Origin: Dehalococcoidia bacterium | GTDB taxonomy: Bacteria; Chloroflexota; Dehalococcoidia; SHYB01 | DNA length: 64,000 nucleotides | Direction of reading: 5' to 3' | Assembly: GCA_965261455.1 (NCBI GenBank) | Contig: OZ253453.1 | Location: 579,444 to 643,443, forward strand | In this document: in pieces, positions 1 to 63,080 of the stretch | Position numbering within the stretch: position 1 is the first letter of the stretch | How the letters are laid out: every line of letters begins with the position of its first letter | The notes under the pieces: model-generated | Told to the model about the DNA's origin: nothing | Database searches by the model: none | What the model saw: the letters and a program-made list of their open reading frames with translations, nothing else | Made by a program: the position numbers and the translations under genes

Positions 1-1554
1 CAGGGTGACTTTCTCCGGCCAATGCGCGAGTTCAGCGGTGGTTGGGTCATGCGCGCAGGCCTGGCCAGAATTCTGTTCAAGAAGCCCAATCTCTTGCTCC
101 TTGACGAGCCAACCAACCACCTGGACCTTGATGCGAACTTGTGGTTTGAGAAATACTTGGCCAATTTTCAAGGCGGCGTGCTCGTCACATCTCACGATCG
201 CGCTTTTTTGGATCAGACCGCGACCAAGGTTCTTTCCATAGAACCGGATGAGGTGGCGCTTCACACGGGCAACTATCACGATTACCTCGTTGCACGCGAG
301 AGCACACTTCAGAACAAGCTGACAGCCGCCGCCAGGCAGCAGCGCAAAATAGATAAGCAAATGCGCTTTGTGGAACGGTTTCGCTCCAAGGCAACGAAGG
401 CCAGCCAGGTGCAAAGCCGTTTGAAGCAACTCGAGAAAATACAGATCATCAAGTTGCCAAGGGCCACCAAGAAGGTCAGCTACTCCTTCCCGGAGCCCCC
501 GCGTAGCGGTTCCGAGGTCATAACACTGACCAATGTAAGCAAGTCCTACGGCAATATCGTGGTCTACCGAGGCATAGACCTGACGCTTTCGCGCGGCGAC
601 CGTGTTGCACTAGTCGGACCGAACGGCGCCGGGAAGACCACCATGTTGAAGATACTTGCAGGCGTCGTTCCGGTTGATGAGGGGGAAAGAAAGACCGGGC
701 ACAACGTCGTCACTACCTATTACGCCCAGCACGTACTCGAACTCCTCAACCCGAACAATACACTCATTGAGGAATTGCAGCAGTCCTCGCCAAGGGAATC
801 GGAGCAGAACCTGCGCACGACCCTCGGCGGCTTCCTGTTCAGCGGCGACGACGTGCGCAAGCCTATTTCCGTACTGTCCGGCGGTGAAAAGGCCCGGGCG
901 GCCCTGGCTAAGCTGCTCCTTCAGCCAACCAACCTGCTCCTCATGGATGAGCCGACCAATCACCTTGACATCGCTTCCAGGGAAATTCTCGCAGACGCCC
1001 TTGGCGATTATCACGGCACTATCTGTTTCATAACCCACGACCGCACTCTGATACGTCAGGTCGCAAACAAGATTGTAGAGATAGACGGCGGCCGGCCCAC
1101 GGTTTTCCCCGGAGACTACGACAGTTATCTCTACCGAAAGCAGACTGAGACCGATAAGAGGAGCGCCAACGCAAGGGCCAATGGAACGGCCGGAGATGCT
1201 GCAGAACGAGGCCAGGCTGTTAGCCGCTCCGGTCAGCCGACCAGCGCCAAGGAGCACCGGTCGCTTACAAAAGAGGCCCGCAGACTCGCGACGCAGATAG
1301 AGAACATAAATGTCTCCCTGGTTGACCACGAGACCCGCATTGCGGAGTTGGAGGCCATGTTCTCCAGCCCCGACCTGTTTGACGAGCCCACTCAGATTGT
1401 CTCCTCAGGAGAGCAATACCGTGTGCTCAAAGAGGAGGTGCAGTCCCTCTGGGATGAGTGGGAGAGGTTGACATTGGAGGCGGAGGACGTCGACAGCAAG
1501 CTGACGGACCTGAAGGCCGGCTCGACCCGTGCCAAGGGTGTCAATGCCGGGTGA
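1..1554 (+). CDS. ABC-F family ATP-binding protein (5' part outside window)
   Basis: Frame is open from base 1. First NBD end ([18 protein letters not shown]), linker, second NBD ([27 protein letters not shown]), C-terminal coiled-coil tail. Confidence 0.92.
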
Positions 1555-33034: not shown

Positions 33035-33503
33035 ATTGGCGGTGAACTTCAGGGACACCACACTAGCAGCCTGTTGGAAAAGGGGAGGCCAGAGCGGCGG
33101 AGCCCCGGTCGGGCGCGCACCGACCCAATGCCAGGAGCGAAAGAGAATCGCCAGCGCGGTCGCGCTTTCTCCTGAGTTTCTTGAGACGGTTTATCCAGCC
33201 AGGCATGAGTTTAAATAAGGTGCGGGCGGGCGGGGCCAATGGCCCAACGCTTCGCAATACACCAGACAATATCGAGAATAGCCACGACGCTCGACAGGGC
33301 ACACGTTGTCTGCACCACAAACGGGTTGAGCGTGCACGCATCGAACCTGCGTGCACAGGCGTGCCTGGGCGGGCCTGTGCCTCCGGCAAGGCTGGTTGGG
33401 CGGTCAACGCGGGGCAGGCCCGAACAACGATCGAGAAATAGGACTTGGGAGCGCACGAGGGCGCCGAGGCAACGTTGGGGATGCCAGCAAACGCGGCAGT
33501 CGG

Positions 33504-37270: not shown

Positions 37271-37636
37271 ATGCTGACGTTGACTGAACTCATTGCACGC
37301 GCACCGTGGAGGGAGGCGGTAACCTATCGTGATACCTGGCCCCACGAGTACGTGCTGTCTGAGAAGGACGCTCAGCAGGAGTTGCTGGAGGCGATCTGCG
37401 AGCGGTTCCGCGCTGGGGAGGGAGTGTCTTGCCGCTTCTTCCGCATGAATAACACCTATCTGTTCATAGGGGACTACAAATACTGACTGATGACCCACTG
37501 GGGCGACTTAGAGCCAGGGGAAGATTACGTGTTGAATCGCGCACGGCTCTACCGAGACCGCCGGGACTTCGTGATCCAGCCCGGGGACTCAGGCAAGCCG
37601 GAGGATTATCCGGTGAACCCCGCCTGTCGAAGTTGA
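37271..37636 (+). pseudogene. Hypothetical protein with in-frame TGA (probable Trp to stop)
   Basis: Protein-like reading continues 49 codons past TGA 37484-37486 (YKY*LMTHW...VLNRARLYRDRRDF). Confidence 0.55.
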
Positions 37637-37716
37637 ATCATCCGGTGAGGTCTCTATGGCTGACGATTCCTCGCGGCCGTTTGCCGACCTGTGGCTCAGA
37701 AGAAAGGAGTAGGACC

Positions 37717-38037
37717 GTGACCCAAGGGGAACGAATAGAGGACTCTTACACGGAGCTCTTCCCGAAGGACTTCGGCGAGCGACTGGAGCGGCTTCGTTCT
37801 CGCAGGCGGGCGATGAATCGGATCGTCGAGTTGGTGCGCGAGCTGGCTCCCATTCGCCAGCTGCACGTGAGCTACAGCACCGGACGAGATGACGCCACAG
37901 CCATCCGCGACGAGCTGGCCGACCTCGTGGAGCCTGAGCACCTCGTCGAGTCCCGGTTCGGCCTGGTCCTGGGCACTCATCTCGGTCCCAACACCATCAG
38001 AGTAGGGGTCACCCAGCGGAGTGGCGGGGACGAATAG
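37717..38037 (+). pseudogene. Chimera: XRE-HTH N-terminus fused to DegV-family C-terminus
   Basis: LFPKDFGERLER resembles 39681-39947; after about 37791 it reads RSRRRAMNRIVELV...GLVLGTHLGPNTI, a DegV-type end. Confidence 0.6.
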
Positions 38038-38660: not shown

Positions 38661-38851
38661 CGGTGCGCACTTTCGATAGCCCTGTGTCTCGTCTTCGCAT
38701 TAGCGCGGGGCGATAATGTCGGCTGGGTCAGGGGGATGTGGAGAAGTTGGAGACCGTGGGACGAGCCTCCAACCGTGAGAGGCCGGAGGCTCGTGAAGGG
38801 CTTACGAACGGTCGTCGACCGGTTCCCTATAGCCGGACCTCCCAGCGAAAA

Positions 38852-38901
38852 GTTCGCAATTCAGTCTTATCAGGCCCACCAAACTGGACAAAATCAAGAA
38901 C
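38852..38901. mobile_element. Putative large-serine-recombinase att junction 1 (P x P'-like), overlapping a recombinase C-terminal remnant on the minus strand
   Basis: Dyad about 38876/38877: GTC/GAC at -/+11-13 and GTTC/GAAC at -/+22-25. Core TCAGGCCCACCA. Minus strand reads VLDFVQFGGPDKTELRTFRWEVRL then stop. Confidence 0.65.
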
Positions 38902-39009
38902 CTTCACGTTAGGGTTCACACTGGCGCTGTGATTAACCATCGGCCCCGTCCCCCTACTATACCTGCCAGAGACTAGCAGGGCAGCCTTCCGGCAAAAGAC
39001 CGAGATCCC

Positions 39010-39037
39010 AAGGCCCTGCGGACCGCAGGGCCTTTTT
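39010..39037 (+). terminator. Intrinsic terminator
   Basis: AAGGCCCTGCG-GAC-CGCAGGGCCTT stem followed by a T run. Confidence 0.8.
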
Positions 39038-39370
39038 CCCTTGAGGAAGCCAGGTGTGTTGGCACGGGGCGCAAGAACGCAGCTGATTCCAGCAGCAAAA
39101 CGCGAAAAGGACAAGGAGTTATCTGTCTTTCAATAGACACAAACAACTCCGGTACTCGTGGGTAGTCGATTTGGATGCAACTGGGGTGGAATAGGTGACA
39201 ACTGCCTCGGAGACTACAGACCTCCCATCCTTGGTGGATTAAAGAAAAGGCCTGCTGACTGGCCCTCACCGCGAAAGCTGGTCCAGCTGGAGTGTTGGTA
39301 TTGTGGGATTATCGCAGTCCCATTATTGCTGACAATCTACACACAAGACTCAAATGCACCGTTTTTCAGC

Positions 39371-39538
39371 AGGCTTTTTGACGCAACGTGTTCGCAAACT
39401 AACGGGAGCGCTGCTGCGTGCATTTGGTGATTTGTATGCGCCTTCTTTTGTGGGTGTCCCTACAGCCATTTAGCGTGTGCTTTTGATGAGGGCGCTTAGC
39501 ATGTTCAATGTAGGTACTAATGCCTACACGTGATTGGG
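39371..39538. promoter_or_regulatory. Conserved non-coding cassette copy A (palindrome TGTAGG-N8-CCTACA at 39509-39528)
   Basis: Aligns along its length with 42218-42385 and 46434-46600. Confidence 0.8.
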
Positions 39539-39680
39539 ACCCGGTCGGAGCAAGACGAGGCCGCGAAGTGCGGGGGAGGTCGTCGCTGCAAGCGCGGTGG
39601 CCTCCCCGCGCGCAACCATGTATGCGGCCCTTTTGCGTTTCAGGGCCTGGGGCTGCGGCCCCTCACCGGCGCGCCGTTCC

Positions 39681-39947
39681 CTATTCGGTAAATATGGAGC
39701 CGAGGCCAAAGTCGTCGGCCAGGTCCAGAAGCGCTTTCAGGTGATGTTGGTTGGGCCGCACCTCGGCCTTGCACCAACGCCAAACGGTGTGACGATAGGT
39801 CTCCAAACGGCGGGCGATCTCCGACCACGACAGCCCCGACTCCTCCTGGAACCGCCTCAGCCGCTTCGGGAAGTCGGCGGGAACGACGCAGATTCTTCTG
39901 TTGTAGCGATTGCGCTGTCGAGGCGTGGCATAAGCGCTCCAGAGCAC
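39681..39947 (-). CDS. XRE-family helix-turn-helix protein (start region possibly damaged)
   Basis: DFPKRLRRFQEESGLSWSEIARRLETYRHTVWRW..VRP. The expected M-PRQR start is ACG or shifted by a 5-bp ATGCC/ACGCC duplication. Confidence 0.75.
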   Translation of the reverse strand: MLWSAYATPRQRNRYNRRICVVPADFPKRLRRFQEESGLSWSEIARRLETYRHTVWRWCKAEVRPNQHHLKALLDLADDFGLGSIFTE

Positions 39948-40079
39948 AGCCGTCGGTCCTTCTCCTATGGGAGGGCAGGGCTCCCATTCCTGTATGGCTC
40001 ATGCCGCGGGAGATCCGGGTCCCGGTCGGAGCGCCTGCCTCGCCCGTTCATACTTGGCCTGCTTCTTCCCGTTTGCCCT

Positions 40080-42041
40080 CTACTGGCCCGGCCCGCTGAC
40101 GGTGCGCTCCAGGCGGTTGGACAACTTCTCATCGCCGTCGGCGCAGATGGCCCCCTGCGCGTCGCAGTCCGTGGTGGCGGGCAGAGTGATCGTCACGTGC
40201 CCGTTGGAGTCCGGGCTAACGACGATCTCCCATCGGAGGTTCTTGCCGCTGACCAGCCGCCGCGCGCCGGTTACCGAGCCTCCGGTCACCGTGAAGGCGT
40301 GGTCGCGCATCGTGGTGTAGCTGAAGCCCGATTTGGGCGCCTCGCTAAAGGCGATCCTGATGCGGAACGAGGCGCTGCCGTTGTGGGACGTCGGGACGCT
40401 CTCGAAACTTGCCGTCAGCGGAGGCCCCTTGACGGTGAATTTCAGCGGGCTGGACAGCACCCTGCCGTCCTCGGCGCAGATGGCCCCCTGCGCGTCGCAG
40501 TCCGTGGTGGCGGGCAGCTCGACGGTGACGTCCGCGTTCGAGTCCGGGGTGACGCTGATCTCCCACTTGATGTTGCGGGTGTCGCTGTCCCCGTCCAGCC
40601 GCCGGGCCCCGGCCACCGTGCCGCCCGTCACCGTGAACGCATGGTCCCGCAGCGTCTTGTAGCTGAAGTCTTCCTTGGGGTCCTCGCTGAACCGCAGTTC
40701 GAATTTCAACGCGGCCTGCCCGTTGTGCGAGCCCGGCGCGTCGTGGGTGGCGGCCGTCAGTGGGGTGGGCGCTGAAGCCACCGCTACGGTAGCAGCGCTA
40801 GTCAGCGTCTCCTGGTGACCGCTGTCGTCAGTGAAGGTGACCCGCACCTTGATGGTCTTTCCCTCGTCTCCGGCAACCAGGGCGTAGGTCGAGCCGGTCG
40901 CGTCAGTGATGTCCGCGTCGTCGGCCAGCCACTGGTATGTAAAGGTGGCGTTGTTCAGGCCGTCGGAGTCGGATAAGTCCGTGGTACCCGCCGTGAGCGT
41001 CTCACCCACCCGGATCGTGCCTGTGATGGTGGGCTCGCCGGTGGCGGTGGTGTTGGACGCAATCACTTCTGCATCGGGGATAATCAAGGGTGGGGCGGAC
41101 AGCCTTGCGTCGCTGGTCAGCGACTCGGCGTTGCCCGCGTCGTCGGTGAAGGTGACCCGCACCTTGATGGCCTTGCCCTCGTCGGCGTCGGTCACGGTGT
41201 ATGTGGAGCTTGTCGCTCCCTCGATGTCCGCGTCGGTGCTTGTCGCCGGATCCTGGCGGACCCACCGGTAGGCGAAGACCGCGTTCGTCAGGCCGTCCTC
41301 GTCCTCGATCCTGTCCGTGGTCGCGGTCAGCGTCTCGCCGGCCAGCACCGTCCCGGTGATGCCGGGCCAGCCCGTCGCCGGGCTGTTCGCGGCCTGATTC
41401 TGTGAGCTTGTTTGCGCGCTGGCATAGACGGCCATCATCATGCGCCGGCATCCCATGGGCGCCACCTTCCAACTGGACCCCAGACCGAAGAAAAGATTTT
41501 CGCCCAGCGACCAGCCAACCTCTCCGGTGGTCACACCCTCAGGGGTCAAAAGCCGATCGCATATCGAGGTGTCGATACGGATGTTGTCGGACCCCCATGG
41601 TCTGTGGAGCACCAACCAATAGGTCGTATCGGCGGCAAGCACATAACCGGTCGTCGTGAGGTCCTCGTGTGTGGTTATGAGCGAGTCGATGGTGGGGTTC
41701 GTCAAGGCCTGCAGACTCCGTCCGGGTTCTCCCGAGTTGTCGGCGCGTATGGTGACAGCGGGCGCTGATCCGAGTCCGCGCAGATACAGCCGGACTTTTT
41801 CAAGCGTAACGGCAGTGCTGCCGGTATGGAATGAATGTGCGTAGGCCTGACCCATGCCCACTATAATTCGACTGTGTTGGCGGACCTCCGGCGCTTCTCC
41901 CAGATTGCTAACCATGACGGTCGCAGTTGACTGCGCCGTCGCCGGGGCGATATTGGACACCACGAGCATGACCGCCATGGCGACGGCCGATAGCCAGACC
42001 ATGCATACCCGAACCCGGGTTACGTTGCTTGCCATATTCAT
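40080..42041 (-). CDS. Secreted modular adhesin-like protein 1 (choice-of-anchor-R-like N-domain, 2 SwmA-like/Ig repeats, 2 conserved C-terminal domains)
   Basis: Signal peptide (..APATA-Q); VSNLG..HSFHTG..DTTYWLV domain; TG.P.I.G...VG.TLTA..D.DGL..YQW repeats; twin P.SH.G..F.LRFSE..DHAFTVTGG..C...AIC domains. Confidence 0.85.
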   Translation of the reverse strand: MNMASNVTRVRVCMVWLSAVAMAVMLVVSNIAPATAQSTATVMVSNLGEAPEVRQHSRIIVGMGQAYAHSFHTGSTAVTLEKVRLYLRGLGSAPAVTIRADNSGEPGRSLQALTNPTIDSLITTHEDLTTTGYVLAADTTYWLVLHRPWGSDNIRIDTSICDRLLTPEGVTTGEVGWSLGENLFFGLGSSWKVAPMGCRRMMMAVYASAQTSSQNQAANSPATGWPGITGTVLAGETLTATTDRIEDEDGLTNAVFAYRWVRQDPATSTDADIEGATSSTYTVTDADEGKAIKVRVTFTDDAGNAESLTSDARLSAPPLIIPDAEVIASNTTATGEPTITGTIRVGETLTAGTTDLSDSDGLNNATFTYQWLADDADITDATGSTYALVAGDEGKTIKVRVTFTDDSGHQETLTSAATVAVASAPTPLTAATHDAPGSHNGQAALKFELRFSEDPKEDFSYKTLRDHAFTVTGGTVAGARRLDGDSDTRNIKWEISVTPDSNADVTVELPATTDCDAQGAICAEDGRVLSSPLKFTVKGPPLTASFESVPTSHNGSASFRIRIAFSEAPKSGFSYTTMRDHAFTVTGGSVTGARRLVSGKNLRWEIVVSPDSNGHVTITLPATTDCDAQGAICADGDEKLSNRLERTVSGPGQ

Positions 42042-42217
42042 CGGGTGAGTCCTTTTCTGTGGACTTGACTTGATCCCACACTGCAGCCCTGGAGGCGGTT
42101 TGATAGAGCTCTATACCGGATCCGCGGCGGCAGCTGTTTGTTGGGATTCGGCCCTATATACAAGTCTATGGGCGTCGACAGAGACTGCACAAGGTTCATT
42201 TGCACTATTTAGCAAGG

Positions 42218-42430
42218 GGCTTTTGGACGCAACATTTTAGCAAACTAGAGGGAGCGCTGCTGCGTGCATTCGGTGATTTGTATGCACCCTATTTTGGGGG
42301 TGTCTATATAGCTATTTAGCGTGTGCTTTTGATTAGGGCGCTTGGTATGTTCGATGTAGGTACTAACGCCTACAGATGATTGGGTACATTGCAGTCTCGA
42401 CAACGCCGCACAGTCGCGGTACGTTTGGGA
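42218..42430. promoter_or_regulatory. Conserved non-coding cassette copy B (palindrome at 42355-42374), upstream of adhesin 1
   Basis: GGGAGCGCTGCTGCGTGCATT is identical to copy A; TGTAGGTACTAACGCCTACA. Confidence 0.8.
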
Positions 42431-42498
42431 CGCCGGATGCAACGGCATGGGCGCGCCTGCCTCGCCTGTTCATACTTCCCTGCCTTTCTCGTCGCCCA

Positions 42499-45400
42499 CT
42501 ACTGAGTTGGCCCGCTGACGGTGCGCTCCAGGCGGTTGGACAGCTTCTTGTCGCCGTCGGCGCAGATGGCCCCCTGCGCGTCGCAGTCCGTGGTGGCGGG
42601 CAGAGTGATCGTCACGTTGCCGTTGGAGTCCGGGCTGACGGTGACTTCCCAGCCAATGTTGCTGCCACTGACCAGCCGCCGGGCCCCGACCACCGTGCCT
42701 CCCTCCACCGTGAACACATGATCGTCCCGCAGCGTCCTGTAGCTGAAGCCCGTCTTGAGTTCCTCGCTGAAGGCGATCCTGAATTTGAAGTTGTCGCTGC
42801 CGTTGTGGGACGTCGGGACGCTCTCGAAACTTGCCGTCATCGGAGGCCCCATGACGGTGAATTTCAGCGGGCTGGACAGCATCGTCCCGTCCTCGGTGCA
42901 GATGGCACCCTGCGCCTCGCAGTCCGTGGTGACGGGCAGCTCGACGGTGACGTCCGCGGTGGAGTCCGGGGTGACGCTGATCTCCCACCGGATGTTGGGG
43001 GTGTCGCTGCCGCTGTCCAGCCGCCGGGCCCCGGCCACCGTGCCTCTTGTCACCGTGAACGCATAGTCCCGCAGCGTCTTGTAGCTGAAGCCCGTCCCGA
43101 GCTCCTCGCTGAAGCGCAGCTCAAAGGTGAACTTTTCCTGTCCGTTGTGCGAGCCCGGCGCGTCGTGGGTGGCGGCCGTCAGTGGGGTGGGCGCTGAAGC
43201 CACCGCTACGGTAGCAGCGCTAGTCAGCGTCTCCTGGTGACCGCTGTCGTCAGTGAAGGACAACCGAACCTTGATGGTCTTTCCCTCGTCTGCGGCCGCC
43301 AGGGTGTAGGTTGAGCCGGTCGCGTCAGTGATGTCCGTGTCGTCGGCCAGCCACTGGTAGGTGAAGATCGCGTCGGCCAGCCCGTCGCTGTCTGATATGT
43401 CCGATGTTGATGCGGTCAGCATCTGTCCGACCTGCGCCGTCCCGCTGATCGTCGGCGCTCCGGTCGCGGCGCTGTTGGGTATGGCAGCCACTGCTACGGT
43501 GACGGCGCTCGTACGCGTCTCCTGGTTGCCCGCGTCGTCGGTGAAGCTCACCCGCACCTTGATGGCCTTTCCCTCGTCTGCGGCCGCCAGGGTGTAGGTT
43601 GAGCCGGTCGCGTCAGTGATGTCCGTGTCGTCGGCCAGCCACTGGTAGGTGAAGATCGCGTCGGCCAGCCCGTCGCTGTCTGATATGCCCGATGTTGATG
43701 CGGTCAGCATCTGTCCGACCTGCGCCGTCCCGCTGATCGTCGGCGCTCCGGTCGCGGCGCTGTTGGGTATGGCAGCCACTGCCGCAGTCGCCTCGCTGGT
43801 CAGCGACTCGTCGTTGCCCGCGTCGTCGGTGAAGCTCACCCGCACCTTGATGGCCTTTCCCTCGTCTGCGGCCGCCAGGGTGTAGGTTGAGCCGGTCGCG
43901 TCAGTGATGTCCGTGTCGTCGGCCAGCCACTGGTAGGTGAAGATCGCGTCGGCCAGCCCGTCGCTGTCTGATATGCCCGATGTTGATGCGGTCAGCATCT
44001 GTCCGACCTGCGCCGTCCCGCTGATCGTCGGCGCTCCGGTCGCGGCGCTGTTGGGTATGGCAGCCACTGCCGCAGTCGCCTCGCTGGTCAGCGACTCGTC
44101 GTTGCCCGCGTCGTCGGTGAAGGACACCTGCACCTTGATGGTCTTGCCTTCGTCTGCGGACGCCAGAGTGTAGGTAGAACCGATCGCGTCCTGGATAGCC
44201 GTGTCTTCGGTCCCATTGTTTGCGATCCACTGGTAGGTGAAGATCGCGTCGGCCAGCCCGTCGCTGTCTGATATGTCCGATGTTGATGCGGTCAGTGTCT
44301 GTCCGACCTGCGCCGTCCCGCTGATCGTCGGCGCTCCGGTCGCGGCGCTGTTGGGTATGGCAGCCGCTACGAATGAAGCCCTGGCCGCGCCGGTGTGTCC
44401 GAGAGCCGCGTCGCCGCCCGAGGACGCGCTCGTGATCGTGCCGCCGTTGAGCGTCAGACTGTCCCCCGGCACGAACATCGAAGAGTGGCTGCCGTCGTCA
44501 TCGGCCAGCGTGTAGCTGAATACGAGCTTCGTCGTGCCGCTGCCGTTGGCATAGGACGCGTTGTGGTCCAGCGTACCGCTCAGTTGGATTCCGATCGAGG
44601 GCGTGCCGTCGGTCGTGTCGACGTTCACCTCCTCGCTGAAGGTGAGCGTCACCTGCACGGCCTCGCCCGGCGTCCACTCGCCGTCCGAGCCGGCCTCGCT
44701 CAACGCCGGCGAGCCCGTGATGGTGGGCGTCGTCCCGGTGATGCCGGGCCCGTTTTGTTGCTGGGACCGCTGGCTCGGCGTGTCCCGTGGCGCCACCGAT
44801 GCCGTGGGCGCGCTGGTCAAGGCTTCCGTGTAGCCAAATTCGTCACTGAAGGCCACCTGCACCGTGATAGTTTTGCCCTCATCATCGGTAACAAGCGTGT
44901 AGGTAGAACTCGTTGCGCTTTCGTTAGCCGTGTTTTCGGTGCCGTCGTTTGCGAACCACTGGTAGATTAACGTGGAGGTGACGATGCCGTCAGTGTCCTG
45001 TATGTCGTCAGTGTCGGCGGTAAGTGTCTCCCCCACCTGCGCTGTGCCCGTAATGACAGGGCTGCCGGTGGCCGCGTTGTCGGGTGGAGCCGGTATTAAT
45101 TGGATCTCACTCCTCAGCGTCTCGGTAGTGCCGCGGTCATCGAGAAAGGATGCCCGCGCCTGAATGCCTTTGCCCCTATCGGCATCCTGGACCACGTATG
45201 TCCAGTTCCAAGTGGGGTATTCGGGATGTCGAACTCTCTCCTCGGCTAATGTCCTCGGGTCAATACGAAACCACTGCCATGAAAACTTGGTTAGATGACC
45301 CCTTAGAGATTGCGTGCCGTCTTCGTCCTGTACGTTGAGCACGCCGCCGTGAAGTGAACGGCCAACCCGCATTTCACCATAAGTGGTTATACGGACATTT

Positions 45401-46287
45401 CCCGTTGCGGGGGCGTTGGTTGATTGCTGTTGAATGATCAGGCCATCTGCGTTTGCCACGAGGTTTTCGCTCACGACCTCCGCTTTCTTGAGGCATGGTT
45501 GGCCATGTCGATCGACATAGGTATGGCTGTACACATCGGGACAAGTCTGGTCGAGGTAGTATATGGTGAACTTAAGATACCTGTACCGGTTATCTACGTT
45601 CGGCGTAAAGTAAAGATTGCGATTATTTCTTTCGAATTCGTCCCTTGTGAGGAAGAACGGGCCGGTAGCCACGTTGGCCCTGGACCACATTGATCTGAAA
45701 ACTCCCCCTATAAGGCCGTCAGGATCGTACAAACTGGCCCTCACCTGCACTCCTACCTGGGGATAGGATGTTGACAGCGTGACAATTCCCGGTTCATCGA
45801 CGTTGCGGACTGTGATGCTCATGGGGACGGTGGCTTCGGAGGAGTCCTCTGCGTCGGTCACGCTGACAGTGAGCGAGTACGAATTGTACGCTTCGTAGTT
45901 GGGGGAAGCGCCCGACTTGACGGTGATCTCGCCGGTGCTCGCGTTCAGGTCGAACACCCTATTGAATTTCGCGACGTCGGTTCCGCCGACGGAATAGGTG
46001 AGGGAGTCGCCATGGGGCTCGCAGGCGGCCACTGTGCCCACGAGAGTGTTCGATTCGGTGTTTTCGTCCAGAGAGAACCCATAAGAGTCCGTGTTGCTGT
46101 TGCCGTTGCAGAACGACACCGCGCTAGCCTGTGCCTGGACGGCCCCGACGGAGAGGGCGCCGAAGGTCGCGGCGGCCAGCAGCATGGCAGACAGGAAAAC
46201 CCAACGCCAGGATCGGATCGCTTCGGGGCGAGGGCCCCGGTCAGAGGTGCGACGCCGGATAACGGCTGATGGAAATAGGAACTTCAT
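42499..46287 (-). CDS. Secreted modular adhesin-like protein 2 (cadherin domain, variable domains, multiple SwmA-like/Ig repeats, same C-terminal domains)
   Basis: Signal peptide (..AVQA); cadherin motifs FSLDEN..VGTVAA..LTYS..YE..YSLTVSVTD..NVDEP; repeats and C-terminus as in adhesin 1. Confidence 0.88.
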   Translation of the reverse strand: MKFLFPSAVIRRRTSDRGPRPEAIRSWRWVFLSAMLLAAATFGALSVGAVQAQASAVSFCNGNSNTDSYGFSLDENTESNTLVGTVAACEPHGDSLTYSVGGTDVAKFNRVFDLNASTGEITVKSGASPNYEAYNSYSLTVSVTDAEDSSEATVPMSITVRNVDEPGIVTLSTSYPQVGVQVRASLYDPDGLIGGVFRSMWSRANVATGPFFLTRDEFERNNRNLYFTPNVDNRYRYLKFTIYYLDQTCPDVYSHTYVDRHGQPCLKKAEVVSENLVANADGLIIQQQSTNAPATGNVRITTYGEMRVGRSLHGGVLNVQDEDGTQSLRGHLTKFSWQWFRIDPRTLAEERVRHPEYPTWNWTYVVQDADRGKGIQARASFLDDRGTTETLRSEIQLIPAPPDNAATGSPVITGTAQVGETLTADTDDIQDTDGIVTSTLIYQWFANDGTENTANESATSSTYTLVTDDEGKTITVQVAFSDEFGYTEALTSAPTASVAPRDTPSQRSQQQNGPGITGTTPTITGSPALSEAGSDGEWTPGEAVQVTLTFSEEVNVDTTDGTPSIGIQLSGTLDHNASYANGSGTTKLVFSYTLADDDGSHSSMFVPGDSLTLNGGTITSASSGGDAALGHTGAARASFVAAAIPNSAATGAPTISGTAQVGQTLTASTSDISDSDGLADAIFTYQWIANNGTEDTAIQDAIGSTYTLASADEGKTIKVQVSFTDDAGNDESLTSEATAAVAAIPNSAATGAPTISGTAQVGQMLTASTSGISDSDGLADAIFTYQWLADDTDITDATGSTYTLAAADEGKAIKVRVSFTDDAGNDESLTSEATAAVAAIPNSAATGAPTISGTAQVGQMLTASTSGISDSDGLADAIFTYQWLADDTDITDATGSTYTLAAADEGKAIKVRVSFTDDAGNQETRTSAVTVAVAAIPNSAATGAPTISGTAQVGQMLTASTSDISDSDGLADAIFTYQWLADDTDITDATGSTYTLAAADEGKTIKVRLSFTDDSGHQETLTSAATVAVASAPTPLTAATHDAPGSHNGQEKFTFELRFSEELGTGFSYKTLRDYAFTVTRGTVAGARRLDSGSDTPNIRWEISVTPDSTADVTVELPVTTDCEAQGAICTEDGTMLSSPLKFTVMGPPMTASFESVPTSHNGSDNFKFRIAFSEELKTGFSYRTLRDDHVFTVEGGTVVGARRLVSGSNIGWEVTVSPDSNGNVTITLPATTDCDAQGAICADGDKKLSNRLERTVSGPTQ
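43290..44370 (-). repeat. Near-identical 288-bp (96-aa) intragenic tandem repeats
   Basis: Shadow ORFs recur at 43361, 43649, 43937 and 44237; the unit AAIPNSAATGAPTISGTAQVGQ.. occurs four times. Confidence 0.92.
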
Positions 46288-46433
46288 GCAATCACTCCGA
46301 TGTAGATGGGATTGGCCCTGGAATTTTGGGCATCAAGAACGGTGGCCAGCCTGCATTTTGACGCCCACTAAGCTGAATCAGATTACAAGAGCTTACAGGA
46401 CTCAACAAGGGCCATATGCAAATACTTTGCCGT

Positions 46434-46645
46434 AGGCATTTGGACGCAACGTTTTCTTAGACTAATGGGAGCGGATTCTGCATGTATTTTGTGATTTGAA
46501 TTCGCCTTCTTTTGTGGGTGTTTATTAGCCATTAGTGTGTGGTGTTGAATAGGGTGTATGGCATTTTCTACGTAGGTACTAATGCCTACACATGATTGGG
46601 TACATTTCAGTCTCGACAACGTGGCGCCGTCGCGGTACGTTTGGA
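46434..46645. promoter_or_regulatory. Conserved non-coding cassette copy C (palindrome at 46571-46590), between divergent adhesin 2 and the sensor kinase
   Basis: CGTAGGTACTAATGCCTACA; the flank ATGATTGGGTACATT.CAGTCTCGACAACG is shared with copy B. Confidence 0.8.
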
Positions 46646-46699
46646 GGTGCGGCATGCAACGGCACTCACCCTGCAAGTGAGAGAGGTCCACCTATATTG

Positions 46700-47977
46700 A
46701 TGCCAGAGGACGGTTTGGGCGGAGCGCGTCCCATCCCCGCAGCATCGCAACGCGGGTTGCGCTGGGGGTCTAGAGGCCCGGCCAGGCTCGGCGCCGAACT
46801 GCGCAGGCAGGTCCTACGGGCCGTCCGGGCCGACCCGGACGTGATGCTGTACGCCGCGAGGGTCTCGGTCTGGGCGCGCTGGCTCGGCTGGCTCGTCGGC
46901 GTGTTCGAATTGGCCTATCGACCGGGGCTCTGGTACGCCACCGACAAGGAGTACCTGTTTCTGAGCGTGCCGCTGCTGGCGTTCAACGGGTTCGTCCACT
47001 ACCGGCTCCGGACGGATCGGACGGTGACGTGGCGCTGGCTGTTCTTCCTCAGCGGCATGGATATCGCGCTGATCACTGCCATCGTCATCATCGGCGGCGA
47101 CTTCCACCTCTTCAGCTACGTGGCCTACTATCCCGCCCTGGCGCTGTTCGCGGTCGTCTTCGCGTCCCTGTGGCTCAGCCTCGCCTGGGCGACGATGGCC
47201 GGGGCCATCTATGCCGTGGTCAGCCTGACGGTGGGCCCGGGTCTCGATTTCGATGCGGGTCAGGAGAAGGCCCTGCTCGTCAGGGTGGTGGCCATGTATG
47301 CGGTCGTCGCATCCGTCAGCCTCATCGCCCGGTTCGAACGGGTGAGGCGGCAGGAGTCCTCGGAACGGGAACGGGAGCTGCTTCGGGAGCGCATCGAGAT
47401 CTCCCAGGCCATCCACGACACGGCCGCGCAGACCGCGTACATGATCGGCCTGGGGATACGCAAGGCCATGAGGCTGGCCGGCGGCTCGAACGAGGAGCTG
47501 GCCGCCACGCTGGCCGCCACCGCATCGCTGTCGAAGGCGGCCATCTGGGAGTTGCGGCGTCCCATCGACGAGGGCCATCTCTTCGAGGGGAGGGAGTTGG
47601 GCCGGGTGCTCTGGTCGCACACCGAGACATTCGAGAGGGTCTCGTCGACCCCCGCGGAGATGCTGCAGTCCGGGACCGAGCCCCCGCTTGCCGTGGAGAC
47701 CCGGGCCCGCCTCTTCTCCATCGCCCACAACGCGCTCACCAACGCATTCCTGCACGCCGGGGCCGGCCGGGTCGAGGTCCGGCTGGACTTCGGGGCCGAC
47801 TCTATCCGGCTGTCTGTCTCGGACGACGGGGGCGGCCTTCCCGAGGACTACGCCGAGCGCGGCCGGGGATTCAGGGGCATGAGGGCGGACGCCGAGCGGC
47901 TGGGCGGCAGGCTCATTGTGGAGACGGGCGGCCTCAATGGGGGAACGACCGTGACCTGCGAGATACCCTACCGATAG
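46700..47977 (+). CDS. Membrane sensor histidine kinase, HisKA_3 (NarX/DesK) type
   Basis: About 5-6 TM segments; H-box ISQAIHDT; N-box HNALTNAFLHA; DDGGG; GGT.V. ATG 46700 after GAGAGG. Confidence 0.9.
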   Translation: MPEDGLGGARPIPAASQRGLRWGSRGPARLGAELRRQVLRAVRADPDVMLYAARVSVWARWLGWLVGVFELAYRPGLWYATDKEYLFLSVPLLAFNGFVHYRLRTDRTVTWRWLFFLSGMDIALITAIVIIGGDFHLFSYVAYYPALALFAVVFASLWLSLAWATMAGAIYAVVSLTVGPGLDFDAGQEKALLVRVVAMYAVVASVSLIARFERVRRQESSERERELLRERIEISQAIHDTAAQTAYMIGLGIRKAMRLAGGSNEELAATLAATASLSKAAIWELRRPIDEGHLFEGRELGRVLWSHTETFERVSSTPAEMLQSGTEPPLAVETRARLFSIAHNALTNAFLHAGAGRVEVRLDFGADSIRLSVSDDGGGLPEDYAERGRGFRGMRADAERLGGRLIVETGGLNGGTTVTCEIPYR

Positions 47978-47996
47978 TTGCTGAGAGGAGACCGAG

Positions 47997-48671
47997 ATGT
48001 CATCTAAGGAACGGATCAGAGTGATGCTGGCGGACGACCACCCCATCATGAGGGACGGCCTGCGGGACACCCTTGAGGGCGAGGGGGACTTCGAGGTGGT
48101 CGGATCGGCGGCAGATGGGGTTGAGGCGGTGAGCATGGCGCAGAGCGTTGCGCCCGAGGTCATCGTCATGGACGTGATGATGCCGAACATGGACGGCGTG
48201 GACGCCTGCCGGGAGATCATGGAGTTGCTGCCGGACACGCGGGTGCTGATGCTGACGGCCTCGACCACAGAGGATGCGGTCGTGGAGGCGATCGCCGCCG
48301 GCGCGACGGGCTATCTGCAGAAGGACACGGGGCCTGAGGAGCTGGCGGAGGCGATTCGGGAGGTGGCCCAGGGCCGTCTGCGCATACCGGACAAGGCCAT
48401 AAGGCGGGTCTTCGCGATGATCCGCGGCCAGCGGGCGCTCACCGCGAGTCGGGCCCTGAAAGCGCTAACCGACCGGGAGCGGGAGATCCTGCAGATGTTT
48501 GCCAGCGGCAAGTCATACGCCCAGATCGCCGAGGCCAAGGGCAACAAGATCGTGACCGTCAGGAACTCGGTCTACCGCATTCAGGACAAACTGGGAGTCG
48601 ATACGAAACAGGAGATGGTAGTGTGGGCCGTGAAGAACGGCCTGCTGGACGAGGTGGAGCGGGATGGTTGA
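47997..48671 (+). CDS. NarL/FixJ-family response regulator (REC + LuxR HTH)
   Basis: LADDHP, VMDVMMP phospho-Asp, GYLQK, LTDREREIL..IAE..TVRN. Confidence 0.95.
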   Translation: MSSKERIRVMLADDHPIMRDGLRDTLEGEGDFEVVGSAADGVEAVSMAQSVAPEVIVMDVMMPNMDGVDACREIMELLPDTRVLMLTASTTEDAVVEAIAAGATGYLQKDTGPEELAEAIREVAQGRLRIPDKAIRRVFAMIRGQRALTASRALKALTDREREILQMFASGKSYAQIAEAKGNKIVTVRNSVYRIQDKLGVDTKQEMVVWAVKNGLLDEVERDG

Positions 48672-48963
48672 TGCTGTCTTGCTTCGGCCAGCGGGGGACA
48701 GTCCGGCGCGGCCGAACGAGGCCAACGAGGAGCCAGTGGAACATTTCAAGTGGGATATGATTCCCTTGCCTCTGCCCGAGTGAGGCGGCAGCGGAGAGGA
48801 GTTGGCAGGCGCGGGACAGTGGCCAGCCGGCATATGGGTCACCATCGTGGGATTGTGGGCCGATGAGTGGATGGTGGTGTAGCTTAGTCCACCCTCAGCA
48901 TCATTCAATTCAGGCGAAGACTTCCGGTAGGTTCACAGGCTTCCCAACCACATCTCGAATATA

Positions 48964-49007
48964 GTTCTGTCTATCGTCAAAATAGGCCCACCGAACTGGA
49001 CTCGAAC
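48964..49007. mobile_element. Putative large-serine-recombinase att junction 2 (P x B'-like)
   Basis: Same core AGGCCCACC.AACTGGAC; GTC/GAC at -/+11-13; GTTC at -22 to -25 but GAAC at +16 to +19. Minus strand reads VQFGGPILTIDRTIFEMWLGSL then stop. Confidence 0.65.
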
Positions 49008-50058
49008 CGCTCATAGGTCGCGTCGCCTGCAACCCTCTTCCATTGACTCGAGGGCAACAGCCCACGAGTAGTAGAGTCTTCCGTTGCCTTTGCGTCGCAT
49101 CCATCGGGAGATCGGGGAGAGGCTGCAACGCGGACGACGTGGGCAGGCTACCGCATGGTGAGAGGCCTCGACGCCACGCCGGGGAGCAGGAAGAAGACCG
49201 CGGCTGCTCCCCCGCAATGCTACGAAGCACCTATGGAGGCTGAAGCATCCGTGATCGGCGGGGTCGCCGCCGTCGGGCCGGGTGCACGGTCTGCTCGACG
49301 AAACCCTAGCGGTCGAAGCCGCTCAGCAGGAGCAGCCGGCGTCTCTCGTCGGGCAAGGCTCCGCCCCTCCAGGATGTCATTCATGCCCGTGACCCCCAGC
49401 CGCATAGACAAGGCGCTCCCGTGTCTTGTCGGCAAGACCCGCGCACGGTTCCTGCCCTCGGCGGGCGCACCCCATTAAGAGAGAGTTAATAGTGCCGTGA
49501 GGCAAGGGACAGTCGTGTCCCTTGGGACAGGGTATTGCTTTCCACTGGCGGAGACTAGCATTTCCGACAACGTTTCCTCAGGAAACTCCGCCCCAGCGGG
49601 ATAAGGTGGCGACACGGAGCGATGGACGACACGACGATCTAGCAAGAGGCGGCGCAACGACGCCCGGGACGGGGGCAAGCGTCGCCGCGCCTCTCCGCCG
49701 AGCAGCGGGAGACGCTCGATTGACCGAACAGCGGCAAAGGCAACAAGCGGCGAGGGTGAAGGCAAGGGTTGGGAGCGACCGGGGGGCACCAGAATGCCGA
49801 GAGGCACCACGAGGCAGTCGAAGGCGAACCGAGCAGCGACCTGTGCCCGCGTGTCAGGCAAGGGCAGGGGCAGGGAGGACAAGACCTCCACCTCCGAGCA
49901 AATCGGCGAATGTAGGCCCACTCCGTACGCAGGGACTGATCCTTTTCGCGGGACACCAGGATGTCGGTCCAGGCTGTTACCGAAGCGGGCGGAGTTCCAG
50001 TATGTCCGCCGGAGTCAGAGCAGGCACTTCGACACGATAGCCTACCAGGAGAGTCCGC

Positions 50059-50319
50059 ATGAACCGATTACTTAGGCGGAAAGAGGTTGAGCAGATGGTC
50101 AGCCTGAGCCGCGCTTCCATCTACCGTTTAGCGGACAGTGGTGACTTCCCCCATCCCATCCGCGTTGGCCCTCGTGCCGTGCGCTGGCGCTTGGGAGACA
50201 TCGAGCAGTGGATGTCGGAACGCCCTCTCGCAACCGACAAAGTAGAGAAGGTCAGCAAGGAGCCTAGTCACAAGTCCGTATTGGTAGAGGCGGCGAGACG
50301 TGATGCTCCCGTTTGGTGA
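50059..50319 (+). CDS. AlpA-family phage/ICE regulatory protein
   Basis: RLLRRKEV..SLSRASIYR..GDFPHPIRVGPRAVRW..DIEQW. Confidence 0.88.
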   Translation: MNRLLRRKEVEQMVSLSRASIYRLADSGDFPHPIRVGPRAVRWRLGDIEQWMSERPLATDKVEKVSKEPSHKSVLVEAARRDAPVW

Positions 50320-50683: not shown

Positions 50684-51580
50684 GTGGAAAGAGACCTCGT
50701 GGGCTATGGCCCCGACCTTCCGGCGGTCCGGTGGCCCGGCGATGCGCGCATAGCGGTTTCGATGGTGGTGAACTACGAGGAGGGGTCCGAATACTCCATT
50801 CTCGATGGCGACTCGCATAGGGAAACGAACGGCGAAGTCGCCTCGCCCATGCCGATGGACACGAGGGACCTTCTGAATGAGTCCATGTTCGAGTATGGGA
50901 GCCGGGTGGGAGTCTGGCGGCTGATGCGTCTGTTAGACAAACACGATGTGAAAGCGACGTTCTTCTGCTGCGCGCTTGCGGTGGAGCGAAACCTTCGCGT
51001 TGGACAGGAGATCACACGCAGGGGTCACGAGGTTTGCGGGCACGGTTATCGGTGGGAAGAATACTACGCGTTCGAGAAAGAGGATGAGCGCGCGGTCATC
51101 GTCAAGGCGACGGACTCGTTGGAAAAGACGACCGGTCAGCGTTCGCTAAGTTGGTTCACCAGGTATGGCGTGAGCGTCAACACCAGGGACTTGCTGGCGG
51201 AGATCGGCGGCTTTCTGTACGACAGCAATTCCGTCAGCGACGATCTGCCGTACTACACAACGGTCCATGGCAAGCCGTGGCTGGTCCTTCCGTACAGCGT
51301 GGAGGTCAACGACGCCCGCTTCTGGAGAGGCGGTCTGACGAGCACCGAAGACTTCTACTCCTACATGAAAGACTCGTTCGACTGCCTTTATGAAGAAGGT
51401 GGAGAAACGCCGAGGATGATGAGCGTCGGGCTCCACTGCCGGATTGCTGGGCGGCCTCCCCGCTCGACGGCCGTGGACCGGTTTCTCGAGTACGCGAAGG
51501 GCCACCCGGACGTCTGGTTCGCGCGCCGCATCGATATAGCGCGATGGTGGCTTGACAACTACCCGCCCGACGGCGCTTGA
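50684..51580 (+). CDS. puuE: Polysaccharide-deacetylase-fold allantoinase (PuuE-like)
   Basis: RDLVGYG..WPGDARIAV..NYEEGSE, ESMFEYGSRVG, HGYRW, MMSVGLHCRIAGRP. Confidence 0.8.
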   Translation: MERDLVGYGPDLPAVRWPGDARIAVSMVVNYEEGSEYSILDGDSHRETNGEVASPMPMDTRDLLNESMFEYGSRVGVWRLMRLLDKHDVKATFFCCALAVERNLRVGQEITRRGHEVCGHGYRWEEYYAFEKEDERAVIVKATDSLEKTTGQRSLSWFTRYGVSVNTRDLLAEIGGFLYDSNSVSDDLPYYTTVHGKPWLVLPYSVEVNDARFWRGGLTSTEDFYSYMKDSFDCLYEEGGETPRMMSVGLHCRIAGRPPRSTAVDRFLEYAKGHPDVWFARRIDIARWWLDNYPPDGA

Positions 51581-57899: not shown

Positions 57900-57995
57900 G
57901 GAGTCCTCCGCCGCGAATGGGTCTCAGCTTGGGTGCGCTTCAGGGTAGGGGGAGCGTGGTTTGGTGTCAAAGCGCCCTGCCCGCCCTCAGTTCCC

Positions 57996-58131
57996 GTAGG
58001 GGCGATTCACGAATCGCCCTCCCTCTCTGTGGGGAGACTGAGAGAGGGAGCGCGCGGCAGGCGCGCGGGCACTCTTTGGGCGCCCCTCCCTTCTTACGCC
58101 CTCTCCCGCTGGGAGAGGGTTGGGGTGAGGG
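57996..58131. repeat. Composite REP-like cluster (GTAGGGGCGATTCACGAATCGCCC plus CCCTCTCCC..GGGAGAGGGTTGGGGTGAGGG)
   Basis: Two palindrome families; the same pair recurs inverted at 63145-63278. Confidence 0.8.
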
Positions 58132-58252
58132 CGGGGGGCGGCGGGGGGCGCGCGATCTCGCCGGAGCGTGCCGCCGGGTTACGCAAAGGTGTCCAGGGCG
58201 GAGAGGCGGTATTTTGGGTTACAGACAGCTTCTGGAAGGCAAGAAGCCGCCC

Positions 58253-58582
58253 TTAGAGGTAGGGGCCGAGGTGGAAGCCGCCGAGGACGTGGATGTGGGC
58301 GTGGTGCTGGGTCTGCAGGGCGTCGGGGCCGAAGTTGGAGAGGAGGCGGAAGCCGTTGGGGCAGAGCTCCTCGGCGAGGGTGACGGCGGCGGTGCTGACC
58401 TTTTGCAGCATGCCGCTCTTCCAGAGGTCCTGCTGGGCTATGTGCTGCTTGGGCATGGCCATCATCATCACGGGCGCCCAGCGCAGGATGTTGTCGAAGA
58501 TGATGACGTCGTCGTCTTGGTAGCGGACCGTTCCGGGCTCGCGGCCCGCGATGATTTCACAGAAGACGCAGTAGTACTCCAA
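58253..58582 (-). CDS. HIT-family (histidine triad) protein
   Basis: CVFCEII, PKQHI, HHAHIHVLGG; TTG start. Confidence 0.9.
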   Translation of the reverse strand: MEYYCVFCEIIAGREPGTVRYQDDDVIIFDNILRWAPVMMMAMPKQHIAQQDLWKSGMLQKVSTAAVTLAEELCPNGFRLLSNFGPDALQTQHHAHIHVLGGFHLGPYL

Positions 58583-58593
58583 AGGCGGGACCC

Positions 58594-60027: not shown

Positions 60028-60655
60028 CCGGTCCGCCTTGGCGTTCCCAGTTTTCTAGAATGCGTTGGATGTAGCGCCAGCTACGCTTGTTCAGCCGTTG
60101 GGCCTCGCGGAACGCTTCGACGATCCACTCAGGGGGATAGGCCTCTTCGGCCTCTTTGAGGTCGTCGGCGATCAGCGGGGACACGATGCCGATGTTGGCT
60201 TCGTAGAGCGAGAAGATGTCCCGGCGCTCGGGCATCCGCGGCGGGGGGGCCGCCTTGGGCATGGCGCCGAGGTCGATCTCGCCCCGCCGGACCCGCTCGA
60301 CGGCCCTGCGGTCGGCGTCCGTGTTCAGCCAGTATAGATGGTCTGTCGAGCCGGATTCGTCCAGGGCCAAGTGCAGGAAAACGCCACGGACGGTGGCCTT
60401 CCCCAACCCGTTGACGAGCGCCTCGGCGGGGTCGCCGCCGGCCCTGGCGAGTCCGGACATAAGATCGAGATCGGCGGCGAGCTCGGCTTGGGTGACGAAG
60501 CGGACGTAGCCCTTCTTCATAGCGAGCCGCCGGAAGACGTGGAGGCTAACGCGCAGCTCGTCATCGTCGTCGATGAGGGGCAGGACATCGGTGAAGAAGG
60601 CGTTGGGAATCGCCGTCTTATCGGAGCGGGAGGGGAATCCGCCGAAGCTGTCCAT
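59930..60655 (-). CDS. dnaD: DnaD-domain replication protein
   Basis: IPNAFFTDVLP N-domain; IFSLYEANIG..WIVEAFREA..RSWRYIQRILENW DnaD box. Confidence 0.85.
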   Translation of the reverse strand: MDSFGGFPSRSDKTAIPNAFFTDVLPLIDDDDELRVSLHVFRRLAMKKGYVRFVTQAELAADLDLMSGLARAGGDPAEALVNGLGKATVRGVFLHLALDESGSTDHLYWLNTDADRRAVERVRRGEIDLGAMPKAAPPPRMPERRDIFSLYEANIGIVSPLIADDLKEAEEAYPPEWIVEAFREAQRLNKRSWRYIQRILENWERQGGPDGKHRRRPRELSQEGGAERTGPSGGRNVVRRS

Positions 60656-60666
60656 GCGCGCCCCGT

Positions 60667-62043: not shown

Positions 62044-62114
62044 GGCGCTCCCTACGAAGTCTGGGGCTCGTCGTCCTCGGGCTCGTCCTGCTCCGCCGCT
62101 TCCGCGGGCGCTTC

Positions 62115-63034: not shown

Positions 63035-63080
63035 GCCAATTTCGCCAAGTGGTGTGCCAATTCCGCCAATTTTGCCAATT
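63035..63080. repeat. Five short GCCAA(T/G) direct repeats
   Basis: Start positions 63035, 63044, 63056, 63065, 63074. Confidence 0.75.

Follow-up and report, generated by a model that had tools for sequence, protein, structure and literature searches.

The 64-kb window analysed here (contig OZ253453.1 of a Dehalococcoidia bacterium, positions 579,444 to 643,443) contains, between window positions 38877 and 48988, a module that appears to be a recombinase-less cassette carrying two putative surface-adhesin genes together with a two-component regulator. The module and the two sites that bound it are described in Table 1. Pfam scans of the larger open reading frames (ORFs) and of the small helix-turn-helix gene found no recombinase or transfer domain in this interval, which agrees with an initial annotation that had described an integrase-less adhesin cassette with its own regulator. 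With att-like sites on both flanks and neither recombinase nor transfer genes inside, the module is organized like a cis-mobilisable element.

The two adhesin-like proteins share a common C-terminal domain, and both start with a signal-peptide-like N-terminus. In relatives, the histidine kinase was called as a 425-aa product with a start near position 46700. A region of ~240 bp is present in three copies in the cassette (83-89% identical): those at 42188-42428 and 46435-46644 lie upstream of the adhesin genes, the latter also facing the kinase gene, and the orphan third copy gives the impression that a third adhesin gene once followed it.

Table 1. Coordinates of the module, its bounding sites and the adjacent AlpA gene; a slash marks the proposed point of crossover.
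Feature	Position in window	Strand	Remarks
Site 1, attP-like P/P' junction	38852..38901	+	crossover dinucleotide C38876/C38877
Left half of site 1, right end of putative neighbouring cassette	38852-38876	+	arm family F2, GTTCGCAATTCAGTC..AGGCC
Right half of site 1, left end of module	38877-38901	+	arm family F1, CACCAAACTGGACAAAATCAAGAAC
F1-type P' block, ~57 bp	38877..38933	+	near-invariant to +28 in 108/120 related sites
~240-bp adhesin-upstream region, orphan third copy	39342..39582	-	aims at site 1, no gene after it
88-aa helix-turn-helix protein (HTH_31)	39681..39947	-	Pfam; gene called in L001, L003-L006, L008
653-aa secreted immunoglobulin (Ig)-like repeat protein	40080..42041	-	IG_AIR9-type repeats; signal-peptide-like N-terminus
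1262-aa cadherin/Ig-like repeat protein, putative adhesin	42499..46287	-	288-bp tandem repeats
HisKA_3/HATPase_c histidine kinase	46592..47977	+	Pfam
NarL/LuxR-type response regulator	47997..48671	+	Response_reg + GerE; identical protein on 11 contigs
Site 2, attR-like P/B' junction	48964..49013	+	crossover dinucleotide C48988/C48989
AlpA/HTH_17 gene	50059..50319	+	~1 kb right of B', outside cassette, in short variable stretch

Two matched sites bound the module

An 18-bp direct repeat, AGGCCCACC(A/G)AACTGGAC, occurs twice on the + strand, as AGGCCCACCAAACTGGAC at 38872-38889 (site 1) and as AGGCCCACCGAACTGGAC at 48984-49001 (site 2). No other match was present in the window even when two mismatches were allowed, and 0.01 matches were expected by chance (100 shuffles). 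When site 1 is centred on C38876/C38877, GTC lies at -13..-11 and GAC at +11..+13, with GTTC at -25..-22 and GAAC at +22..+25. Site 2, centred on C48988/C48989, has the same left-arm geometry (GTC at -13..-11, GTTC at -25..-22) and again GAC at +11..+13, with GAAC on the right at +16..+19. Both copies are thus as the initial annotation had given them. A rule-based two-sided scan of the window (xC/CACC plus GTTC at -25 or -19, plus GAAC at +22 or +16) returned exactly sites 1 and 2, compared with 0.005 sites per shuffled window.

The central dinucleotide CC is non-palindromic and has the same orientation in both sites (38876/7 and 48988/9). Imperfect inverted-repeat half-sites of 20-25 bp flank each centre, as in the att sites of large serine recombinases (LSRs), and across related sites the left arms vary up to -2 and the right arms are constant from +1. 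The F1-type block to the right of the first centre closes with a stop codon that is in frame with an LSR upstream of it (GPPNWTKSRTFTLGFTLAL, then stop). The left half of site 2 is the right end of the module (arm family F3, GTTCTGTCTATCGTCAAAATAGGCC), and its right half, CACCGAACTGGACTCGAACC, is of B type and mirrors a tRNA T-arm from +9 onwards; on manual inspection, the T-arm-like sequence on the minus strand (48998-49008) did not lie within any foldable tRNA. Read on the minus strand, the sites end peptides with VQFGGPDKTELRTFRWEVRL (site 1) and VQFGGPILTIDRTIFEMWLGSL (site 2), each followed by a stop. As a separate observation, the left arm of site 1 (38862-38875) is the reverse complement of CCTGATAAGACTGA, a 14-mer from the anticodon arm of the tRNA-Ile(GAT) in a related stretch (L040); the match is missing from other F2 arms and may be coincidence.

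The module is found in several chromosomal contexts

An identical response regulator was present on 11 metagenome contigs, ten of which were compared as L001-L010. The module was 97-99% identical in all ten and its flanks differed on both sides, giving at least six left and at least four right contexts. The left homology breakpoints fell at window positions 38781-38979, and those on the right at 48962, 48978, 48986 and 49001, homology elsewhere reaching ~49578 or beyond; most breakpoints lay within ~100 bp of the cores. This comparison of relatives bears out the earlier view of the two sites as recombination junctions. The right arm of site 1 was identical in L001, L002, L004 and L005, and the left arm differed. 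In L001, it is an intact tRNA-Val(TAC) that stands directly before the left arm of the module, ...GCGCC/CACCAAACTGGAC (in full, ...GGTTCGAGTCCACTAGCGCC/CACCAAACTGGACaaaatcaagaacc). At the other end, L009 carries a 6.85-kb cassette inserted between the P arm of the module and B', with a core on both sides. In L007, a type I restriction cassette comes next and the core is partly deleted; in L001, L008 and L010, a 44-bp deletion removes the right att core and fuses two cassettes.

The nitrile-hydratase (NHase)/tRNA-Val locus that borders the module in L001 was itself polymorphic for cassettes. Six contigs (L136-139, L142, L143) join tRNA-Val to an F2 arm, followed by a DUF2207 cassette. L135 and L144 carry an extra cassette of 1.84 kb exactly at this tRNA-Val/F2 point, and its end, GGTTCTGTCTATCGTCAAAATAGGTC/CACCA, which is joined to the same F2 arm, is almost the right (P) arm of the module. 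At the same point, L141 has a different F1-type cassette and L140 another sequence; all contigs of the tRNA-Val locus diverge right after ...GCGCC/CACCA. Apart from this, we noted that the nitrile hydratase operon lies between two full tRNA-Val(TAC) copies in L136 (5536-7455) and likewise in L135, L137-139, L142 and L143. L140, L141 and L144 have the downstream tRNA-Val(TAC) copy only, with a breakpoint ~55 nt from the first tRNA end and off the att crossover.

Related sites fall into two spacing classes and commonly follow tRNA genes

When species-representative genomes were scanned for the core together with either type of arm, at least 118 stretches matched, nearly all in metagenome-assembled genomes (MAGs) of Dehalococcoidia or Chloroflexota and often at several dispersed sites per genome. 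Some of the related MAGs bear names (IRC3, RHO1, RHO2) that suggest sponge symbionts. The P' arm gave 0 matches in viral contigs. The right arm read CACCAAACTGGACAAAATC(A/G)AGAAC(C/T)TTC.. in 108 of 120 sites; it hardly varies to +28 and stays conserved to ~+57. This P' arm is kept across many species-level MAGs while the cargo differs.

The left partners were more diverse. Intact tRNA genes (~17 sampled sites) comprised Ile(GAT) five times, Lys(TTT) and Met(CAT) four times each, Val(GAC), Val(TAC) and Leu(TAG). The initial annotation had proposed that the B arm is a tRNA 3' end and had named tRNA-Ile(GAT); the latter is indeed the commonest partner in this sample, and for the module itself the partner in L001 is tRNA-Val(TAC). 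Further left arms belonged to family F2 (GTTCGCAnTTCnGTAC.., the left arm of site 1), to family F3 (GGT(T/A)CTGCCTACCGTCAA.., the left arm of site 2) or to a hairpin type with a perfect 14-bp hairpin, TATAGGGGCGCTCA..TGAGCGCCCCTATA (L017, L019, L047, L060, L122), besides other unclassified arms.

GTTC lies at -19..-16 in the tRNA arms versus -25..-22 in the P arms, and GAAC lies at +22..25 in the P' arms versus +16..19 in the B' arms. The outer motif of P-type arms is therefore 6 bp further out than that of B-type arms, an arrangement of two spacing classes that is expected of LSR sites. The two classes, with site 1 as P/P' and site 2 as P/B', had been predicted correctly; the offset, given there as ~5 bp, is 6 bp. 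Counted by the two-sided rules, the related sites comprised 33 P/P', 18 B/P' and 5 P/B' junctions.

LSR genes read through the core

LSR genes were found in relatives at the same kind of site, in support of the recombinase type that had been suggested for the window sites. L126 encodes a 543-aa protein with Resolvase, Recombinase and Zn_ribbon_recom domains (checked directly against Pfam; the domains of the LSRs in L129 and L131 are precomputed Pfam calls). The three LSRs are 536-598 aa long, and their ORFs cross the att core. Remote sequence matches link the family to the structures of TP901-1, SprA and TnpX. The P arm of all three elements, GTTCTCGATTTTGTCCAGT, is an inverted repeat of the P' arm. 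Specifically, the P arm of L126, GGTTCTCGATTTTGTCCAGTacGGCC/, mirrors the universal P' arm, the arms of this element are perfect inverted repeats over 19 bp, separated by a 12-bp spacer, and the arm on its right is of B type (tcgaac). L131 has the same LSR/att arrangement beside chromosomal genes, and in L129 the LSR arm is joined to the mirror image of an F2 arm.

The family comprises 4482 proteins at E <=1e-30 among 8000 scored candidates, and the C-terminal tails of the best 120 homologues, all with at least 78% identity to the query, were compared. These proteins are conserved to ..VLDFVQSGPP (GGC CC/C ACC) and then diverge completely; divergence of P0011 is seen already at ~+2. An Arg-Thr pair stands at residues 4-5 of 35 of the 120 tails, corresponding to GAAC at +16..19 (B' type, continued in many different ways), and at residues 6-7 of 60, corresponding to GAAC at +22..25 (P' type, families F1, F2 and F3). 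The tails therefore map the crossover independently to CC and again reveal two spacing classes 6 bp apart.

As had been recommended, we compared the minus-strand peptides of the window with LSR C-termini (last 20-25 residues). The site 2 peptide matched 14 of the 120 tails (E to 2e-11) and that of site 1 matched 4 (E ~3e-4), because LSR ORFs in relatives continue across att into arms that belong to these families; the likeness does not stem from LSR genes in the window. Wherever an LSR gene has survived, its frame runs on the strand reading towards the core. A separate idea, that the P arm of the module is a vestigial LSR 3' end, was dropped, since F3 arms also flank cores on either side and form LSR tails.

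Besides the recombinase gene, LSR-bearing elements contain Replic_Relax, HTH_17 or RHH, and toxin-antitoxin genes; no intact element could be followed to its left edge within 10 kb. These genes lie upstream of the LSR in L129 (774-7797), L131 (5831-10611) and L133 (1-11632), the last with a faint match to a TrwB-like coupling protein, and in this respect the elements resemble integrative mobilisable or conjugative elements of the actinomycete type. The family has many intact LSR genes, some of them in sample ERZ25072854, the accession of which neighbours those of module-bearing samples.

A cassette probably mobilized in trans

We consider it most probable that the interval 38877-48988 is a recombinase-less member of a large family of Dehalococcoidia cassettes that are moved by an LSR similar to DsiB, the serine integrase of the Dehalococcoides ssrA islands (McMurdie et al. 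2011, PMC3146451). This family of swappable cassettes in uncultured Dehalococcoidia is very large and apparently undescribed; no description of a tRNA-targeting LSR cassette system was found in the literature searched. That LSRs of this family act on these sites, and that the module is still able to excise, we infer from the sequences compared.

In the mechanism we propose, the attB of the LSR would be the 3' end of a tRNA gene, whose T-arm, GGTTCGAGTCC, would supply the B half-site. Crossover would take place at the CC that closes the acceptor stem, so that the tRNA stays intact. The ends of the elements would carry P-type half-sites with GTTC/GAAC placed 6 bp further from the crossover. Site 1 would then be the place where a neighbouring cassette (P end) abuts the module (P' end), and at site 2, where the array ends, the module would meet a B-type half-site with its own P end. 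The same LSR would move both LSR-bearing elements and LSR-less cassettes, and the module, because it lacks a recombinase, would depend on an LSR supplied in trans. This LSR would probably come from a related element, one that carries Replic_Relax as well and, in one case, a gene weakly matching TrwB. As the window likewise contains no recombinase gene, the module has the look of a cis-mobilisable cassette that relies on a recombinase from elsewhere.

Several observations weigh against this interpretation. Excision of the module requires a reaction between P/P' and P/B', which is not a canonical LSR pair, and moving one cassette within an array requires pairs of attP-like with attL-like or attR-like sites, which are non-canonical for serine integrases. 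Neither an LSR gene nor a remnant was detected in the 64-kb window (tblastn with two LSRs), and nothing LSR-like lies beside either site beyond ~15 codons overlapping the att site. ARAGORN and Rfam searches found no tRNA, no transfer-messenger RNA (tmRNA) and no Rfam family in the window. Some breakpoints are up to ~100 bp off the core (L003 at 38979, L004 at 38781), and the complete (L001, L008, L010) or partial (L007) loss of the right core means that some copies are fixed. No excised circle was found among the matches listed (48988 joined to 38877: ...TCTATCGTCAAAATAGGCC/CACCAAACTGGACAAAATCAAGAACC, alias ...GTCAAAATAGGCC/CACCAAACTGGACAAAATCAAGAACC). The five hairpin-type arms always have G at +5 regardless of the right arm, which a crossover at CC (-1/+1) does not predict.

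There was also no unoccupied tRNA/B' site among the matches listed in the species-representative scan, and an unoccupied attB (tRNA T-arm, then B') gave 0 matches in JGI metagenomes. A looser B' pattern matched one contig, L130 (JGI Ga0209579_10003781), with a T-arm/acceptor-like fragment followed by the B'-type AACTGGACTCGAACC (2830-2866); the contig is GC-rich, with no tRNA called at the fragment and no LSR nearby. For the window copy, the empty-site junction (38876 to 48989) would read ...TTCAGTCTTATCAGGCC/CACCGAACTGGACTCGAACC, alias ...CAGTCTTATCAGGCC/CACCGAACTGGACTCGAACC.

Tentatively, and with less conviction, one can imagine that this LSR family runs an integron-like exchange, in which a universal tRNA T-arm/acceptor end serves as B half-site and any two CC-core sites recombine. 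Such a universal half-site would explain integration behind at least six tRNA species. Single recombinase-less cassettes may then be recombined, including by pairs of attP-like with attL-like or attR-like sites, and pairs of this kind would mean that directionality control is relaxed compared with phage serine integrases. The three P-arm families may be interchangeable, and every recombination event may rewrite the C-terminal tail of the LSR.

Alternative explanations

The sites could instead be fossils, with the different contexts of the module produced by homologous recombination between the 57-bp arms, by strain mixtures or by assembly joins at a 10-kb repeat. We regard this as unlikely. 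The P' arms are long and near-identical, and RecA could use them, but the tRNA-Val/P' and P/P' junctions share ~7 bp, too short for homologous recombination, and the P' arm is conserved across many species-level MAGs when the cargo is not. Likewise, although the right core has been lost in several copies and no circle junction was recovered, cassette gain and loss at tRNA-Val is exact at the crossover and intact LSR genes are abundant, the sample ERZ25072854 included. The contigs do come from metagenome assemblies with several strains per sample. For the copy in the window, homologous shuffling or fossil status is possible; it would leave the tRNA/P' junctions unexplained.

Less probable still is that the repeats are att sites of a tyrosine integrase (P4/AlpA type), with strand exchange inside the 14-bp identity CCACCAAACTGGAC. 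tRNA 3' ends and direct repeats of 14-18 bp are typical of such enzymes, yet the tRNA part of the repeat amounts to just 5-9 nt (CACCA plus 2-4 nt) and the remainder lies outside the tRNA. An AlpA gene is present to the right of site 2, and P4-like tyrosine integrases (Arm-DNA-bind_3 + Phage_integrase) come after the AlpA stretch in L002 and L003, but no tyrosine integrase lies within the module, beside it or at most related sites. A crossover right of +5 would account for the invariable G at that position in the hairpin-type arms; against this, the LSR ORFs cross the core and the 120 LSR tails diverge right after CC (at ~+2 in P0011). Dyad-symmetric arms in two spacing classes, moreover, are a hallmark of LSR sites.

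That the repeat arose by chance, or marks a conserved C-terminal coding end in two minus-strand genes, has a negligible probability: both copies do lie within short minus-strand ORFs, but the chance expectation is 0.01, most core-crossing minus-strand ORFs extend <100 codons upstream and are not conserved beyond ~8 residues, and at site 2 a stop stands 3 codons upstream. The repeats were ruled out as 3' ends of long minus-strand genes, the ORFs being short and unconserved upstream.

The remainder of the window

The initial annotation had taken the region from 2 to 38.8 kb for decayed neighbouring elements, which was not borne out. From 2 to 33 kb, the window contains intact-looking metabolic genes (CoA-transferases, hydrolases, short-chain dehydrogenases) and an IS481 element; only ~33.2-38.9 kb looks like a neighbouring cassette, with short-chain dehydrogenase, PIN, GmrSD and DegV-fragment genes. 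No further att-like site was seen in the window, save a weak, possibly decayed junction at 33246-33290, where TTCGCAATAC is followed by ACCAGACAATATCGAGAAT, as though F2 and P' arms had been joined and the core between them lost. If this junction is real, the left neighbour would be a cassette of ~5.6 kb. Fragments of DegV-family genes lie near att sites in several contexts (L004:325-699, L005:2063-2383 and 15811-16101, and window positions 37633-38037).

The IS481-family transposase gene (27430-28563) lies between 53-nt inverted repeats at 27324-27376 and 28555-28607. Exact-protein look-ups of this gene and of the gene at 50684-51580 returned no record. Further right, nested inverted repeats enclose ~5 kb, one of 68 nt with 94% identity (58084-58151 and 63125-63192) and one of 32 nt (57992-58023 and 63251-63282). 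This stretch, 57992-63282, contains genes for an IstB/DnaC-like ATPase (58594-60027) and a DnaB helicase (60667-62043) and could be an invertible or mobile segment. A 13-bp perfect tandem repeat, CGCGGCCCGACCG, is present in ~4 copies at 8333-8384.

Implications

With more than 100 chromosomal junctions and 120 recombinase tails, the family provides a natural data set for LSR site recognition, in which attP and attB half-sites, the 6-bp offset and the crossover can be read directly from junctions and tails. This clade of LSRs is distant from the phage enzymes characterized to date and appears to target the conserved T-arm of tRNAs. The data suggest how uncultured Dehalococcoidia swap adhesin, restriction and defence cassettes without one recombinase per cassette; if the integron-like scheme holds, it would describe how such cassettes spread through their populations. 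Gain and loss at attL-type junctions hints at site pairings that textbook serine integrases avoid, and unusual pairings of this kind matter to those who use serine integrases as genome-engineering tools.

Comparison with known systems

The proposed system shares features with several known ones. P4-like tRNA islands with tyrosine integrases and AlpA have in common with it the tRNA 3' end, the direct repeats and a nearby AlpA gene. They differ in that the module has no tyrosine integrase, its repeat lies mostly beyond the tRNA, the arms have dyad symmetry and LSR genes run through the core. The cis-mobilisable elements of the Streptococcus ICESt1/ICESt3 family are likewise flanked by att sites, lack integrase and transfer genes, stand in tandem with autonomous elements and can move along with them; there, the enzymes are tyrosine integrases acting at the fda locus.

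Phage LSRs (A118/LI, Bxb1, phiC31, TP901-1, SPbeta SprA) have the same combination of Resolvase, Recombinase and zinc-ribbon domains and also act on sites with a central dinucleotide and dyad arms. In the model of Rutherford and Van Duyne, the zinc-domain motif of attP reportedly lies ~5 bp further out than that of attB; the offset here is 6 bp. The phage enzymes have one attB and a strict attP x attB reaction, in contrast to the three interchangeable P-arm families seen here, where the arrays and the polymorphism of the 1.84-kb cassette imply that attP-like sites react with attL- or attR-like ones.

SCCmec (staphylococcal cassette chromosome mec) and the other staphylococcal and enterococcal cassette chromosomes are moved by the LSRs CcrAB or CcrC, insert at the 3' end of a conserved gene and are bounded by direct repeats of 15-18 bp. 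They also form composite tandem arrays in which recombinase-less cassettes are served in trans (see the discussion in PMC3146451). Their target is rlmH (orfX) rather than a tRNA gene, two recombinases act together, and there is no sequence kinship to the sites described here.

By analogy, the closest known system is that of the ssrA-specific islands of Dehalococcoides with the serine integrase DsiB, which form tandem islands with 20-bp repeats; 15 of 31 islands have no integration module and were proposed to be cis-mobilisable (PMC3146451). Both systems belong to the same bacterial class and have an LSR of ~540 aa whose gene always overlaps the att site at its 3' end, so that the stop codon depends on the context. 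In both, short direct repeats delimit islands arranged in tandem behind a tRNA-like 3' end. The target of DsiB is the single tmRNA gene ssrA, whereas the targets here are ordinary tRNA genes of at least six kinds at many loci; the left partners are tRNA genes, and the window contains no tmRNA. The crossover would be at the end of the acceptor stem here, compared with the T-loop for DsiB. The LSR elements carry Replic_Relax, HTH_17/RHH, toxin-antitoxin and, in one instance, a weak TrwB-like gene, in place of the DsiA, RecF-like, ParB and Mom genes of the DsiB islands, and the cargo consists of adhesin, restriction or defence genes where the ssrA islands carry reductive dehalogenases.

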